Shown piece after piece: positions 3,808 through 25,440 of a stretch of DNA of 64,000 bases. Location: sequence record NC_054930.1; one strand, given 5' to 3'. A program made the position numbers and the translations under genes. Position 1 is the stretch's first letter, and each line of letters starts with the position of its first letter. The notes beneath the pieces are model-generated. The model was not told the origin of the DNA. It saw only the letters and a program-made list of their open reading frames with translations, and ran no database searches. The DNA comes from Escherichia phage PP01.

Positions 3808-3967
3808 ATATCAAGAACCGTCATTGAAATGCAAAATAAAATTATTGAAATAAATCCATCTGGAGTACTAAAGAACCCAATCCAACATGCTCTGGTGAAT
3901 AGATAAAACGCTAGAAAAAGTATCACATATCCAAGAAATATCATTATATCAAACTCCGTATAAAGCT

Positions 3968-3985
3968 AAAGGGCCGAAGCCCTTT
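3968..3985 (-). terminator. Stable stem-loop with UUCG tetraloop on the minus-strand RNA, at the a-gt stop
   Basis: aaagggc-cgaa-gcccttt palindrome (loop reads UUCG on the minus transcript). Confidence 0.5.
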
Positions 3986-5186
3986 ATTTTGTAATAATGT
4001 CAAACTGTTCTTTAAAGCAGAAGCTTGAATCTTGATGCTGATACAAAAATTCATAAGCTTTTTCGCGTTCACGGTCATAAAGAGCTCGGTCAGATGACAG
4101 TTCTTTAATACGCTCAAATGTTGATTCCATGTCATTTTCATCAAACCAAACGATACCGCTATCATGAGAAATTAACGGAGTATTATCAACACGGAATTTT
4201 AAATTTTCGCCAGTAGATTTCCAAAATACCGGAATTGTTCCACACGCACCAAGCTCGAGATGAGTATATTCTAAAGAACGCTGTAGATATTTTTTATCTA
4301 ATTTACTCAGCTGATAACCAAATCCGGATTTACTCATGCGTTCAAGCATTTCGCTATTTACATAACGGTCGAGAATTTGCGTTGGCAAATTAGGAGCAAT
4401 TTTAATTTGGTCTACTTGATGAAGACGATAATACTCGTATGGAATTCCTTTTTCTTTAATAGGAATGAACGCTGGAGAACGTTCCAGACCTTCCATAACA
4501 GTACTTAGTCCTGCAGGTTTAAGATGTTTTTCGTGAAAATCAAACATCTGATAAAAGCCTTTCCATGTAGTAGTACGACCAATCCAACGGTTGATATTCA
4601 TGTTAATTTCAGAAACATCTTTCCAGTAAGTTGATCGAACCTTCGCAATATCCATAGGAGGCTGAAAGTTATATACGGTCGGTGCTTCTTCAATATCATC
4701 AAACAAAGAAACTGTTTCTGGATACCATTCTTTCATTAAAACTTTATTAAAATCACCATTATCAGAATGGCTAAAAATAACATCAGCTCGACGAACAGTT
4801 TCTTCTAATCCCAAATTTCGGCGCAAAGAAAGAGAAGAATGGTCATGTTGATAAACTACAACACGAACCGAAGGTTTAATGTTATCAATAATTTTTTTAT
4901 AGTTATTAATCGTGTCTTCTTCAACTGAAGTAGCAGGAACTGAATTGATAATTAGAATATCACAATCATTTACCAACTTAAGTGTTTTATCGTATTCTTT
5001 TGCCAATAAAACCGGAATTGAAAATGACTTATAATCATGTGCGCAATTACGAGTAAATGATTTATCTTTAGCATAAACCAAAGTTACTTCATGACCATTT
5101 TTAATAAACCAATCACGTTGCTCAAGAGAAAATTTAGTTACACCACAACCTTCAAGACCTCGAGCCATAAAAATGCATACTTTCAT
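3984..5186 (-). CDS. a-gt: DNA alpha-glucosyltransferase (HMC-DNA glucosylation)
   Basis: 400 aa, same length as T4 alpha-GT, and N-terminus (MKVCIFMARGLEGCGVTKF...) matching my recollection of it. Confidence 0.88.
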   Translation of the reverse strand: MKVCIFMARGLEGCGVTKFSLEQRDWFIKNGHEVTLVYAKDKSFTRNCAHDYKSFSIPVLLAKEYDKTLKLVNDCDILIINSVPATSVEEDTINNYKKIIDNIKPSVRVVVYQHDHSSLSLRRNLGLEETVRRADVIFSHSDNGDFNKVLMKEWYPETVSLFDDIEEAPTVYNFQPPMDIAKVRSTYWKDVSEINMNINRWIGRTTTWKGFYQMFDFHEKHLKPAGLSTVMEGLERSPAFIPIKEKGIPYEYYRLHQVDQIKIAPNLPTQILDRYVNSEMLERMSKSGFGYQLSKLDKKYLQRSLEYTHLELGACGTIPVFWKSTGENLKFRVDNTPLISHDSGIVWFDENDMESTFERIKELSSDRALYDREREKAYEFLYQHQDSSFCFKEQFDIITK

Positions 5187-20823: not shown

Positions 20824-21804
20824 TTATTTCAGAAGAGTAACCTCAGCAATTTCTTCCCAACCGTTTTTGTCGGTCATAATAAAGTCAGCAAGATAAAGAG
20901 CAGTACGCAGTGAAACATTGCGTAAACGATTAACATTAACTTTCATCCATGATAATGCTTTATAAGTTTCTTCATCAGAAAGACCGCGCTTTTGCATCAT
21001 GTCAGTTGAAAGAATAACATCTTCAACCCTGACCATAATTTCTTCATTAGTGTGAACACCCAAATCTAAATAAACCGAGCGGGACACTAATGCTTGTAAG
21101 TGTGGAGCAAGTTTAGTACCACGGTCTAATTCGCGGTCAATGTCAACGTTTGTGATAAAAACAATCGTTCCTTTAAATTCAAACTCACGGTCAATGCCTT
21201 TTTCTTCTAAGTAAGAAGATGCAGTGCTCCAGCAGACTTTACGGGTCTCTCCAGTGTCCAGAGCGGCTTTTAGAAGATTAAGAATGTCCATATCAGAGAA
21301 AACATCCACATCATCAATCAAAAGGACAGAATTCTCTTCACGATTATTCCAAAGCTGCTCATAAAGACCAATACCAGAGATTTTACCATTAATGCTTTTA
21401 TATTCAATGTATCCGTTATCATTTGCTTTATTTAAAGCTTTATCTAAAGAATACGTTTTACCAATACCTGCTGCGCCAGAGATAATTAATGAACGAATAT
21501 TTCCATTAATAATACCATTCGTCATCATTCCCATAACATTAAATCTTTTATTAATGCGGGTTTTCATATCTTCATACGATTCTTTAACTTCTTCAACTTT
21601 TACACCATCATATGAAATATCTGATTTGTAAACCCAAACACCGCGACGTTTACCGTCAATTTCAACAAAAACTTTACCATCTCCTTGTGCATCTACCGGA
21701 GCATTATCTGGGAACCATTCGCCTAAGAGCTCAAAAGTTCCAGAGATTTCTTTACCGAAGTAGATACCCTTATTGATAGTTACAGTTTTCATTTTATTCT
21801 CCAA
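20824..21804 (-). CDS. AAA+/P-loop ATPase, 326 aa
   Basis: Walker A GAAGIGKT, Walker B VLLIDDVD; GGAG ribosome-binding site; early promoter upstream. Confidence 0.7.
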   Translation of the reverse strand: MENKMKTVTINKGIYFGKEISGTFELLGEWFPDNAPVDAQGDGKVFVEIDGKRRGVWVYKSDISYDGVKVEEVKESYEDMKTRINKRFNVMGMMTNGIINGNIRSLIISGAAGIGKTYSLDKALNKANDNGYIEYKSINGKISGIGLYEQLWNNREENSVLLIDDVDVFSDMDILNLLKAALDTGETRKVCWSTASSYLEEKGIDREFEFKGTIVFITNVDIDRELDRGTKLAPHLQALVSRSVYLDLGVHTNEEIMVRVEDVILSTDMMQKRGLSDEETYKALSWMKVNVNRLRNVSLRTALYLADFIMTDKNGWEEIAEVTLLK

Positions 21805-21906: not shown

Positions 21907-22920
21907 TCATTTATAATAACTTCGGTGGTTTTCAAGATAAACCCTCTCAAGGAAGTCATCCCAGAAACTCATGTCTACTTTTTGCTGCATACCGTTCTTA
22001 GAAGCTTCAATGGATGCTGCTTCTACTTGATCGACCACATCTTCCAAAAACTCTTGAACAGTTTTAAATGGATGCTTACCCAACTTCACGTCGAGAATAA
22101 ATGAAGCATCTTGGAGTGGATAAACCAAGTCACCAGTTTTGTAAATTTCCAATAGTTGGAGTCCACCACGACAAGCATGGCTCAAAGCTTTCCAGTCAAT
22201 GCCCTCATTCGCTTCAGCTTTACGAGCGCGTTCACCGTATTCGGCATCAAGTTTATTCAATGACTGCTTGAGCTCTGTAATTGATAACGTTGTTTGGTAC
22301 TTACGTCCAAGAACAGTATAGAACGTTTGCGGGCCTGTTTTCTCATGATTATGGAACACCCATTCACAGAACTCGTTTTCAGGGAGTCTGTGTTTGATAT
22401 CTTCTACTTTAGTACGACGAAGTCTATCAGGGATTCCTTCTTGATAATCAACCCACTGGTCAGGGATTTGATTAACTACTTTCAATACATCACGTAATGC
22501 GGCCAAACGAGAACCCTTGACACCGTATTTAGAAGCTTGCTTGCGGACATATCCTAAATAGGATTTCATGTTAGTTGTATAAAACCGTGAACGATTGTCT
22601 TGGATAAATTTCCATACATCAGGCAAATCAGATTTAACCACTAGTTCAGGCGGAGTGTGAAGCATATCCAATGCTACAGTTTCACCATCTGCTGCTAATT
22701 TAAAGAAATACTTAAGACTGTATAGTTCATGGTCAATATCATCTTTAGTGTTTTTAGATGATGTGTTGTTAGTGTTTTTACTCATATGCTCTTTAACATT
22801 TCCGATAAGAATATCGCGAGCACGAGGAACAAAGATTTCTTTAAAATCTACATCAGATTCTGGAGTAGAAGTTCCATAAAGATGACTACCAAAATAGCTT
22901 TTCATTACTGTTTTCATCAT
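21907..22920 (-). CDS. Putative Pol-beta-superfamily nucleotidyltransferase-like protein, 337 aa
   Basis: N-terminal GS...DxD-type motif YFGSHLYGTSTPESDVDF; remainder unassigned. Confidence 0.5.
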   Translation of the reverse strand: MMKTVMKSYFGSHLYGTSTPESDVDFKEIFVPRARDILIGNVKEHMSKNTNNTSSKNTKDDIDHELYSLKYFFKLAADGETVALDMLHTPPELVVKSDLPDVWKFIQDNRSRFYTTNMKSYLGYVRKQASKYGVKGSRLAALRDVLKVVNQIPDQWVDYQEGIPDRLRRTKVEDIKHRLPENEFCEWVFHNHEKTGPQTFYTVLGRKYQTTLSITELKQSLNKLDAEYGERARKAEANEGIDWKALSHACRGGLQLLEIYKTGDLVYPLQDASFILDVKLGKHPFKTVQEFLEDVVDQVEAASIEASKNGMQQKVDMSFWDDFLERVYLENHRSYYK

Positions 22921-23378
22921 TCAGCCTTATATTCAATAACAGGACATACTTTAGCTTTACGCGCTTTTAAAAATTCGACGATAATAGATTTCTTGGGTTG
23001 AATAGGAGGTAAGCCTTTATACGCCCTATCAATATTTTCTACATGTAAAGCATAATCCTTTTTCCATTTATAATCTTTATATTTTTCATGCAGTTGTGCA
23101 GGAATAACAAATGAACCGATAATAAGTAAAACAACCAAAAGCGCAAGTATAAATGCTGATGGAAGAAGAGTCCATAAACTACCGAAAATAAGCCAACGTT
23201 GTAGGCTTTCTGCACAAATAATTGTTAGCCCTACGAGTATAGTACACCCAAAAATAGAAACGAAAAATGTAGGAATGGCAATAGACCAAAAATATGCGCA
23301 TAGTGTCTTAGGTCGTTGCCATTCATCGTTAAACAATTTGAATAATTTATAGTGCCAAGAGTTTTCATTAATAATCAT
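22917..23378 (-). CDS. Multi-pass membrane protein, 153 aa
   Basis: ORF track; several hydrophobic helices. Confidence 0.55.
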   Translation of the reverse strand: MIINENSWHYKLFKLFNDEWQRPKTLCAYFWSIAIPTFFVSIFGCTILVGLTIICAESLQRWLIFGSLWTLLPSAFILALLVVLLIIGSFVIPAQLHEKYKDYKWKKDYALHVENIDRAYKGLPPIQPKKSIIVEFLKARKAKVCPVIEYKAE

Positions 23379-23380
23379 AA

Positions 23381-23902
23381 TTATCCTTTCATTGAAGGCG
23401 TAACGGTTGTTAAATACTTAATCATCGCTTCAGCTTCTGATTTTGATAATGAAATTTCTCCATTGTTTTGACGAATAGAAATAAAATCCGGATGACGGTC
23501 ACCACCAGCTTTTAAAACACACATATAAGTATCAGTTTCATCTTCAATATTTGAAATGATTGAAGCAGTTCCGCATGAATGCGGTTTTTGATAAATCAAT
23601 ACAGCTTTTCTTCCGCCATTTGACTGTTCATAAACTTTTAATACATCAAACAAATCACTTCTTTTATCAATAGCTAAAATGTTATTTTCATCTTCAATGT
23701 TAAATCCTTCGGATACTTCATAAAGTGTTACCCATAAATCACCGATGTCAATAACAGCATTTACTTTTCCACGGCTTTCAAGAGTATGACAAATTTTCTT
23801 GATTTCGTCATAACTCATTTTAATAATATCATCTCCTTGACTAAGAAAGATGTCATTTTTAAATTCAACACGAATTAAACCGCTTTCACTTGAAATAAAC
23901 AT
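23381..23902 (-). CDS. Hypothetical protein, 173 aa (tandem paralog A)
   Basis: ORF track; shares GFNIE...and C-terminal ...EA.A(M/L)(I/K).YL..V.P(S/T)M motifs with the next ORF. Confidence 0.55.
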   Translation of the reverse strand: MFISSESGLIRVEFKNDIFLSQGDDIIKMSYDEIKKICHTLESRGKVNAVIDIGDLWVTLYEVSEGFNIEDENNILAIDKRSDLFDVLKVYEQSNGGRKAVLIYQKPHSCGTASIISNIEDETDTYMCVLKAGGDRHPDFISIRQNNGEISLSKSEAEAMIKYLTTVTPSMKG

Positions 23903-23908
23903 ATTTCC

Positions 23909-24454
23909 TCACTTTGAAATCATAGTTGGAATAACAGAATCAAGATAAGTCTTTAGTGCAATAGCTTCGTCTTTGGTAAATGTGACAATATGCGATCGAA
24001 AATCATCAATTTGACGAATAGTTAAGACATCTCCATCTTCATAACATTTTGATACGTTTAAAACAGTTTCATCATTCTGATTGCAAGCGTTAGTAATAAT
24101 AGCATTGCAATTTTTAAACCATTTTAAACTATGTTTTCTTTCATTAGAATAATAAAAATATTTAATCTTAGTTATAAAATTATCCCAATTATTAATTGAT
24201 AAGCATATTGACTCGCTTTCAATATTAAATCCTGGGCATAAAGAATAGAAATGAATTTTATGCTCATCATTAATGCTTACAATTTTATCAGTATAAGAAT
24301 TTTCAATTTGGGTTAAACGAACAATTTCGTTAGGCGTAAAATATAGCATATCGTCTTCTTGTGTCAAACGATACATATTATTTACTTTTTCTATAGCCAA
24401 TTCACCAAAAAGTGAACTAACTTCTAATACTAATCGTTTCGCCTCACTCATCAC
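23909..24454 (-). CDS. Hypothetical protein, 181 aa (tandem paralog B)
   Basis: ORF track; paralogous to 23381..23902. Confidence 0.55.
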   Translation of the reverse strand: MMSEAKRLVLEVSSLFGELAIEKVNNMYRLTQEDDMLYFTPNEIVRLTQIENSYTDKIVSINDEHKIHFYSLCPGFNIESESICLSINNWDNFITKIKYFYYSNERKHSLKWFKNCNAIITNACNQNDETVLNVSKCYEDGDVLTIRQIDDFRSHIVTFTKDEAIALKTYLDSVIPTMISK

Positions 24455-24584
24455 TGTATACTCCTCTGAATCATATCAATAATGTTGTTCACCAGATTAT
24501 AAGTAAACATTGGGTAATTATATTGAATCATCACATACACAACAAACAAAATTTTCATTCTCTTCTCCTTGACAGTTGACAAGA

Positions 24585-24635
24585 TTACTATACCATAACC
24601 TTGCCAACTTGTAAACCATTAAATGACGTTTTCAA
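24585..24635 (-). promoter_or_regulatory. T4-type early promoter
   Basis: Plus strand tactataccataaccttgccaacttgtaaaccatt. Confidence 0.5.
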
Positions 24636-24780
24636 TAAAATTCTGAAGCTTTGTGTGAGCATCAACCATGATTTTCATTTCTTCTTTTGCGAAAGCTGTA
24701 CCTCTTTCCCGAGCAGAATACTCATAGTCAGAAACTGCATTAGCATATTCTTCAATTAGTTTCATTAAAAACATCTGCTT
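24610..24780 (-). CDS. Small hypothetical ORF (~56 aa), below ORF-track cutoff
   Basis: Hand translation: MKTEKQMFLMKLIEEYANAVSDYEYSAREGTAFAKEEMKIMVDAHTKLQNFIENVI; coordinates approximate. Confidence 0.3.
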
Positions 24781-24781
24781 T

Positions 24782-24976
24782 TCAGTTTTCATTATTCCAC
24801 CTAATCATTTCAAGATATTGAACTAACTTAGCTTTAGATTTATCCAAATCCTTTTTAGCTGCTTCTATACCGTCGTATGAATATCCTTCACAATGCTCAA
24901 CTGCTAATTGATATGAATCTATTTCAATATCACGTGCTAATTTAATGATTTTTTCAAACTGTTCGCGTGTTAGCAT
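24782..24976 (-). CDS. Hypothetical protein, 64 aa
   Basis: ORF track. Confidence 0.5.
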   Translation of the reverse strand: MLTREQFEKIIKLARDIEIDSYQLAVEHCEGYSYDGIEAAKKDLDKSKAKLVQYLEMIRWNNEN

Positions 24977-24978
24977 AC

Positions 24979-25218
24979 TTAAACTCTCGTATTATGATCG
25001 ATAATTTCATCAAGAAACATATCTAACGCTTCTAAAGCATTATCAACTTTAGCTTCAAGTTCATCAATACCTTTATTTGCAATGCCTGACGAAAACCAAG
25101 CAAAGTCACTAAGTTCCTCATCTGCTTTACGAATTAAAGCTACCAATTCTTTAATCTTATCCGCTTGTTCGATACTAATCATTATTCCACCACATATGAA
25201 AGAGAGAATATTGCACAC
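24979..25218 (-). CDS. Hypothetical protein, 79 aa
   Basis: ORF track. Confidence 0.5.
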
Positions 25219-25370
25219 GCCATGTGAGTTGCAACTTCATCACACATATTATAACGTTTCTTAAGAAGTTCTACAAGTTCTTCACTAGTAACTTCATCCA
25301 TGTCGACGAAAAAATCACCATTAATGATGACGTAGATATTTCCTTCTTGATTAAGTGCTTCAATTTTCAT
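25182..25370 (-). CDS. Hypothetical protein, ~62 aa (start at MKIEALNQ)
   Basis: ORF track 25182..25415; internal ATG has a GGAG ribosome-binding site and lies downstream of the early promoter. Confidence 0.45.
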
Positions 25371-25393
25371 GATGTTCTCCTCTTTATCCGATG

Positions 25394-25440
25394 GTTGTAT
25401 AGTACCACGGCTCAAACGAAAAGTAAACCGGTAAAATGAA
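25394..25440 (-). promoter_or_regulatory. T4-type early promoter
   Basis: Plus strand gttgtatagtaccacgg...aagtaaaccgg. Confidence 0.6.

Follow-up and report, generated by a model that had tools for sequence, protein, structure and literature searches.

We analysed a 64,000-nucleotide stretch of Escherichia phage PP01 DNA (record NC_054930.1; "the window", in which all positions are counted unless a locus is named) and focused on two adjacent minus-strand genes, here called A and B. A previous reading of this DNA from sequence alone had proposed a tandem pair of open reading frames at 23381..23902 and 23909..24454, and both are real genes. Gene A (23381..23902, minus strand) encodes a 173-amino-acid paralog of MobD.1, of the RB32ORF097c type. 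Gene B (23909..24454, minus strand) is the ortholog of T4 MobD.1 (UniProt P39240, titled 'uncharacterized 21.1 kDa protein in mobD-ri intergenic region'), with 87-88% amino-acid identity and the equal position downstream of the early promoter Pe57954. The B product is 181 amino acids long from a GTG at 24454 or 180 from an ATG at 24451, and the ATG is probably the start; it overlaps the TGA of the upstream mobD.2-like frame, and the phage PP01 annotation gives a 180-amino-acid MobD.1, identical to the product from this ATG. The relationship of A to T4 MobD.1 is more distant, with two shared Pfam domains, similar length and a like predicted fold but only 27% identity, and A is missing from T4. 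The deposited proteins of phage PP01 include exact copies of A and B, and A is unchanged in phage Phaginator too. The T6 record labels A 'similar to mobD.1; RB32ORF097c' and the following gene 'replaces mobD; RB32ORF096c', so that the paralogy of the pair is already on record and both genes are catalogued.

The similarity of A and B covers their full length. BLASTP aligned A residues 3-171 with B residues 12-178 (27% identity, 52% positives, E 1e-12), and phmmer searches of the six-frame translation of the window with A and B retrieved each other alone (E 2e-9 and 5e-10); no extra family copy was found in the six frames of the window by phmmer with A and B or by a hidden Markov model of the C-domain. 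Both proteins matched Pfam PF24449 (T4_y05I_N: A, E 2e-33, 115.2 bits; B, E 7e-41, 139.4 bits; gathering cut-off 24.9) and PF24448 (T4_y05I_C: A, E 4e-23, 81.9 bits; B, E 1e-20, 74.3 bits; gathering cut-off 27) in the order N then C, and both matched phrog_1502. Because the BLASTP, phmmer, Pfam and PHROG results agree, the likeness is beyond chance and is not limited to the termini, and we are practically certain that A and B belong to the MobD.1 (Pfam y05I) family as paralogs of one another. The shared motifs that had first drawn attention to the pair are genuine: GFNIEDE lies at A residues 66-72 (nucleotides 23687-23707) and GFNIESE at B residues 75-81 (nucleotides 24212-24232), and the core G-x-N-[IL]-E-x-E is kept in nearly all aligned full-length members, the exceptions being one final D and one member with S and K. 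The C-terminal ends, described by the sequence-only reading as near-identical, are the best-conserved stretch of the pair, but with 9 identities over the last 18 aligned residues the wording was too strong.

Other family assignments added little. NCBIfam search gave no meaningful match for the pair. The similar-sized nrdC.8 product (175 amino acids) was considered as a third paralog and rejected, having no Pfam or phmmer relation to A or B, and two further matches, B to Pfam ART (ADP-ribosyltransferase; E 0.13) and A to DUF7189 (under the cut-off), were dismissed as noise. For the Pfam label 'putative transcription factor' attached to y05I, no supporting experimental report was found in the literature, and literature searches for y05I, for accession numbers and for Pfam identifiers brought up nothing of relevance. 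In RefSeq, the name 'molybdopterin-guanine dinucleotide biosynthesis protein MobD' is widely attached to homologs of MobD.1, MobD.4 and MobD.5 (window 23909-24454 and 24979-25415; e.g. locus L002 of our comparison set). The name apparently stems from a confusion with that of T4 mobD (mobile endonuclease D); Pfam scans give the molybdopterin label no support, with only y05I domains in MobD.1, only DUF7438 in MobD.4 and no match in MobD.5.

The MobD.1 family is truly small. A profile search of 1.84 billion representative proteins detected 23 family representatives at 50% clustering, namely the A type, two B types, two more full-length types (181-184 amino acids), fragments of full-length types, free-standing C-domain proteins (74-87 amino acids) and two weak repeat matches in very long proteins, while word-indexed homolog searches retrieved almost only Tequatrovirus alleles. 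All located members are in T4-like phage genomes, either at loci syntenic with the T4 tk-nrdC region or in other T4-like phage records. Across several genera (L002-L016), the gene order between the mobD.2-5 small frames and the membrane protein gene and nrdC.11 is kept. In other genera a single full-length gene occupies the same position (L006-L012, which include the two further full-length types), with 29-35% identity to B and 24-28% to A, and in L011 and L013-L016 there are C-domain genes only. In L014 and L016 two C-domain-only genes (3812-4319, overlapping reading frames of about 96 and 80 amino acids) stand in tandem, thus tandem duplication recurs in the family, in another T4-like lineage. 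A membrane-protein homolog and then nrdC.11 follow the family gene in every fetched locus, with T4 as the exception; that the family C-domain and the membrane-protein gene are constant neighbours may reflect a function or simply synteny.

The N-domain comparison dates the separation of the two genes. The A N-domain has 22-28% identity to B and falls in the same range against the single-copy orthologs from other genera; B has 29-39% identity to those orthologs. In the N-domain tree A forms its own branch and B groups with the orthologs. Since B and these orthologs are equally far from A, the A-B split is ancient by these sequence distances and dates back at least to the separation of the genera, provided that A neither evolved much faster nor came laterally. 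The proposed tandem duplication followed by divergence consequently stands as far as head-to-tail paralogs are concerned, but a recent duplication with rapid divergence does not.

Lateral acquisition would explain the same distances in another way: A would have come from a distant relative and recombined beside the resident MobD.1, and the tandem would be a cassette insertion. The equidistance and separate branch of the A N-domain fit this scenario, as do the C-domain of A, which resembles free-standing C-domain proteins of other genera and B to a similar degree (39% against 31%), its C-terminal helix (63% identity over 27 residues to a free-standing C-domain protein), and the demonstrable swapping of cassettes in this region. 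However, no lineage outside Tequatrovirus that could have donated an A-type gene turned up in tblastn, homolog and 1.84-billion-protein searches, the same distances would arise if one copy had evolved faster once an old duplication had taken place, and the domains are short; the C-domain neighbour-joining tree was unresolved and was left out of the decision between duplication and acquisition. We consider acquisition unlikely, but still a serious competitor of the old duplication.

The sequence-only reading had further taken the pair as a hallmark of genes under diversifying selection, such as host-range or anti-defence factors. We measured the ratio of nonsynonymous to synonymous substitution rates (dN/dS, Nei-Gojobori, whole-gene and domain averages over 11-12 Tequatrovirus loci). 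The ratio was 0.16 for A (N-domain 0.13, C-domain 0.31) and 0.35 for B, or 0.20-0.25 without the divergent PE37-type allele; among the neighbours it was 0.17 for the 153-amino-acid membrane gene, 0.035 for tk, 0.055 for nrdC.10 and 0.067 for nrdC.11. Of the 480 records with a match to A, 388 show a protein identity of 95% or higher. With dN/dS far below 1 and A little changed in most records, diversifying selection is unsupported: A and B are under purifying selection, somewhat relaxed compared to the neighbours.

An arms-race locus, in which a tandem duplicate is kept diverging by diversifying selection and encodes host-range or anti-defence products, nevertheless has points in its favor. The early region is variable, with gains and losses of mobD, of an extra DUF7438 copy and of a tudor-like gene across related phages; two B allele classes about 50% apart exist in one genus; dN/dS of A and B is 2-5 times that of flanking genes; and, like many accessory counter-defence genes, A and B are dispensable in the laboratory. 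Against these stand the low ratios themselves (0.13-0.35, with no domain above 0.31), the uniformity of A across records and the age of the split. No defence system was linked to A or B, and PADLOC, which excludes anti-defence proteins, gave no match at E up to 1. A role in host range by adsorption is implausible for early non-structural products, and the products of A and B, being early, non-structural, acidic and cytoplasmic, are unlikely to determine host range; a function in anti-defence or in host takeover is conceivable. Taken together, we judge an arms-race locus improbable.

The dispensability of A and B follows from two observations. The T4 block nrdC.11-mobD.3 is deletable (PMC9825161), and phage T2 (L018 2940-4481) carries frameshifts in B, A and the 153-amino-acid membrane gene. 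A 57% 'divergent allele' of A detected in T2 by tblastn was rejected as such, being a frameshifted copy of the ordinary allele. These deletable and frameshifted copies, the split or truncated genes in a few other records and the replacement in T4 could also suggest that A and B are decaying passengers without function. This is barely credible in view of dN/dS far below 1, of genes that are full-length and intact in almost every record (about 480 with A, about 720 with B), and of a family and position kept across genera that share only about 30% identity.

The existing variation is modular and arises by cassette exchange, which involves B alleles, B/A chimeras and mobD in place of A. The two B allele classes of the genus are about 38% identical in the N-domain and have two differences over the last 42 residues. 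Natural chimeras, consisting of the N-terminal part of B and the C-terminal part of A, are the sole family gene at the locus in at least three independent read-archive assemblies (L024-L026). Nucleotide comparison with one of them (L024:3001-3540) placed the crossover point in a 10-nucleotide stretch, GATGAAACTG, at 24064..24073 (minus strand) in B, and the matching stretch, GATGAAACTG, lies at the structurally equivalent position 23533..23542 (minus strand) in A.

In T4, an HNH homing-endonuclease cassette, mobD, has overwritten A from codon 7 onwards together with the 153-amino-acid membrane gene, and the single-copy state of T4 is thus derived. The replacement is evident from the homology break and the retained start of A: homology to T4 ends at window position 22921, at the nrdC.11 start, and restarts at 23884, and T4 keeps the ribosome-binding site, the ATG and six codons (MFISSG) of A, the rest of A being absent. 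The relic (L001 9210-9283; window 23884-23908) is a 23-codon open reading frame, MFISSGTDMCYKCKAKLNETKNQ, with a TGA that overlaps the mobD ATG, so that mobD may be translated in coupling with what is left of the gene that it replaced. A was found by tblastn at 80% identity or more in 432 phage records, and MobD occurs at 95% or more in 47, so the two-gene state is the common Tequatrovirus arrangement and T4 is atypical. Phage VR26 (L009 4969-5724), from another genus, has a mobD homolog with 79% identity to T4 MobD that lies between the membrane gene and nrdC.11 and has cost the phage none of the neighbouring genes, i.e. the same homing endonuclease in a slightly different insertion state.

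Hundreds of Tequatrovirus (T4-like) genomes share 94-97% nucleotide identity with the region around the pair, in which all genes run on the minus strand and follow the T4 order: tk, rI.1, rI, rI.-1, mobD.5 to mobD.2, then B and A, then nrdC.11, nrdC.10, nrdC.9 and nrdC.8. An early promoter equivalent to T4 Pe57954 lies at 24587..24615 (minus strand; GTTTACA, 17-nucleotide spacer, TG-n-TATAGT), detected by a consensus scan with 10 of 12 positions and the TG extension. Its -35 and -10 hexamers are the same in T4 and T6, the T4 spacer differs at two positions, and the transcription start maps to roughly T4 coordinate 57954; the T4 early promoters Pe57954 and Pe57.9 have been published (PMC6024815). 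Downstream of it are the mobD.2-like small frame (24451..24582, minus strand; from the open reading frame list and alignment with T4 mobD.2, no Pfam match), B, A, the gene for a 153-amino-acid predicted membrane protein of the RB32ORF096c type (22917..23378, minus strand; phrog_944 match and synteny) and nrdC.11, the next gene of the transcription unit (21907..22920, minus strand; nucleotidyltransferase of the RlaP family, Pfam PF10127, 95% identity to T4 nrdC.11). A and B are head to tail, 6 nucleotides apart, with the A ribosome-binding site spanning the B stop; the membrane gene starts 2 nucleotides past the A stop, and its own stop overlaps the nrdC.11 start. This tight packing suggests that the genes are co-transcribed, and they are probably translationally coupled.

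Several neighbouring features were observed in addition. nrdC.10 (20824-21804, minus strand), downstream in the same transcription unit, has weak Pfam matches to P-loop/STAND-like NTPases, and as a pair nrdC.10 and nrdC.11 (21907-22920) resemble parts of RNA-repair or defence-related modules. Directly upstream is a second tandem family, the three successive DUF7438 paralogs mobD.2a, mobD.3 and mobD.4 (24619-25218, minus strand; 57, 64 and 79 amino acids). Other Tequatroviruses have a fourth DUF7438 copy and an 88-amino-acid 'Phage_tudor' gene between mobD.2a and mobD.1, neither of which is present here. A sigma-70-type site (TTGACA, 16-nucleotide spacer, TATATT, TG; 11 of 12 positions) at 24340-24367 (minus strand) is on the coding strand in the 5' third of B; it may be due to chance, the region being AT-rich and the scan showing no excess over shuffles.

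For the protein architecture, we built AlphaFold2 models from family alignments and assigned secondary structure by DSSP. Mean predicted local distance difference test scores (pLDDT) were 86.6 for B and 85.2 for A, with block means of 84-97 in the N-domains and about 66-90 in the C-domains. In both models the predicted order of strands (E) and helices (H) is E-E-E-E-H, E-E-E-E-H, then E-E-E-E-E-H, so the N-domain would comprise two beta-beta-beta-beta-alpha units and the C-domain one unit of five strands and a helix. In A, the predicted N-terminal two-repeat domain covers residues 2-94 (23621..23899, minus strand) and the C-terminal single-repeat domain residues 100-171 (23390..23605, minus strand; AlphaFold2 with DSSP, and Pfam PF24448). 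The C-terminal domain of B (residues 109-178; 23921..24130, minus strand) likewise has one predicted repeat of five strands and a helix, and it terminates in the conserved YLxSVIPTM. The models have significant structural similarity to solved members of the PC4-like fold (Whirly/PUR/PC4), and the predicted domains have a three-repeat layout with repeats I and II intramolecular and III separate. It is thus likely, judging from the models, that A and B have a PC4-like fold in a layout resembling that of Pur-alpha.

Sequence comparisons reveal less of this relationship. Repeats I and III were aligned by hhalign with a probability of 86%, and nothing was found for I versus II or II versus III (probability below 1%). 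The PUR family was absent from the Pfam matches of A and B at E up to 1, the family profile searched against PDB sequences found no PUR chain and nothing below E 0.1, and a BFVD structure search at E below 1e-3 with sensible superposition returned family members only.

PC4-like domains are formed by two repeats of one chain (type I) or by two single-repeat chains (type II), a single repeat by itself would hardly be stable, and Pur-alpha is the only reported protein that joins domains of types I and II, according to a 2020 review (PMC7549692). The layout of Pur-alpha (PDB 3k44 and 5fgp for repeats I-II, 5fgo and 8chw for repeat III) is shared by the phage proteins by prediction. Unlike Pur-alpha, the phage proteins are acidic, have no detectable sequence relation to it, lack the flanking regions and have five predicted strands in the third repeat. 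Whirly proteins (PBF-2 p24, StWhy2) and trypanosome MRP1/MRP2 are basic, tetrameric and bind single-stranded DNA or RNA; the phage proteins differ from them by the extra third repeat and by acidity. Borrelia Bpur (3n8b), PC4, Sub1, the phage T5 PC4 homolog (4bg7) and YdbC resemble the family C-domain and the free-standing proteins of 74-87 amino acids, and in solved single-repeat PC4-like proteins the repeat pairs with a second copy.

We propose that A and B may be dimeric early host-takeover binders with a Pur-alpha-like layout, favouring a protein ligand, and regard this proposal as evenly poised between right and wrong. Repeats I and II would form an intramolecular PC4-like domain, with the third, single repeat at the C-terminus. 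The C-terminal repeat would dimerise the protein through a conserved amphipathic helix that ends in YLxxV(I/T)P(T/S)M. The C-terminal helix and tail are strongly conserved in the family (T/S-K-x-E-A...Y-L-x-x-V-I/T-P-T/S-M) and are the best conserved part between A and B; because of this conservation and of the free-standing small proteins found elsewhere, the C-repeat fits a dimerisation module, comparable to Pur-alpha repeat III and Bpur. Since a lone PC4-like repeat needs a partner repeat, dimerisation through this repeat is plausible, and we see the chances for and against it as balanced. Homodimers would be likely in single-copy phages, and B:B, A:A or A:B dimers possible where both genes exist.

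The N-terminal domains would then be the ligand-binding modules. In all but one of 22 family members examined the isoelectric point is 4.2-5.8, and for the N-domains it is 4.5 (A) and 4.8 (B). Acidic or polar residues (E, Q, D-D, N-x-E-x-E) occupy the conserved strand positions, and since they alternate with hydrophobic residues, they should be on an exposed sheet face. The ligand could be a basic host partner, for instance a nucleic-acid-binding protein sequestered or decoyed by the phage protein, and sequestration of a protein would fit an accessory, immediate-early host-takeover role. The acidity of the family and of its conserved strand residues leads us to favour a protein ligand slightly and weakly; we put it a little short of an even prospect and nucleic acid somewhat lower, as a tentative second. 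Proteins of the same fold that act by protein binding include SsgA-like proteins (3cm1), PsiB (3nct) and the KhtT N-domain (7agw). They have no sequence relation to the phage proteins and other oligomeric arrangements, and the analogy is a lead only.

The Pfam label points in a different direction, to A and B as regulators that bind single-stranded DNA or RNA like Pur-alpha, Whirly and PC4, that use the faces of their beta-sheets to bind or melt nucleic acid and that modulate early phage or host transcription, replication or mRNA fate. The analogy of fold indeed points to single-stranded nucleic acid, but the acidic composition argues against nucleic-acid binding, and we hold such regulators to be possible, though on the doubtful side.

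A number of points weigh against the dimeric, protein-binding proposal. To our knowledge, all biochemically characterised PUR, Whirly and PC4 proteins bind nucleic acid, which speaks for the Pfam label, and overall acidity may be compatible with a local basic patch. The fold comes from AlphaFold models built on shallow alignments (17 and 22 sequences), and both the helix swapping and the sheet side of the conserved acidic residues are deduced from periodicity along the sequence alone. The C-domain was modelled as a monomer with moderate confidence, and a partner may perhaps be unnecessary. T4 lives with B alone, therefore an A:B heterodimer is optional and not obligatory. A full-text literature search found mobD.1 in one review table only and no experimental datum on any member.

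The pair is largely ordinary, in that both genes are catalogued and Pfam models exist for both domains. What is gained is the replacement of 'diversifying selection' by measured purifying selection with cassette-type exchange, the demonstration that the reference phage T4 is atypical, mobD having overwritten A and the membrane gene, and a structural hypothesis, the Pur-alpha-like three-repeat layout, for the family. In its boldest form, which we offer as a long shot, the MobD.1 family would be the second after Pur-alpha with both an intramolecular and an intermolecular PC4-like domain, the A and B C-repeats would form the first heterodimeric type II domain, and the acidic sheets would mimic nucleic acid, trapping a DNA- or RNA-binding protein of the host at an early stage of infection. 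The predicted Pur-alpha-like architecture and the possible heterodimer are the only part of wider interest. If the layout and the dimerisation are true, the family would provide a compact bacterial-virus model of the PUR architecture, which the 2020 review called unique to Pur-alpha, and a handle on another unexplained T4-like early gene.

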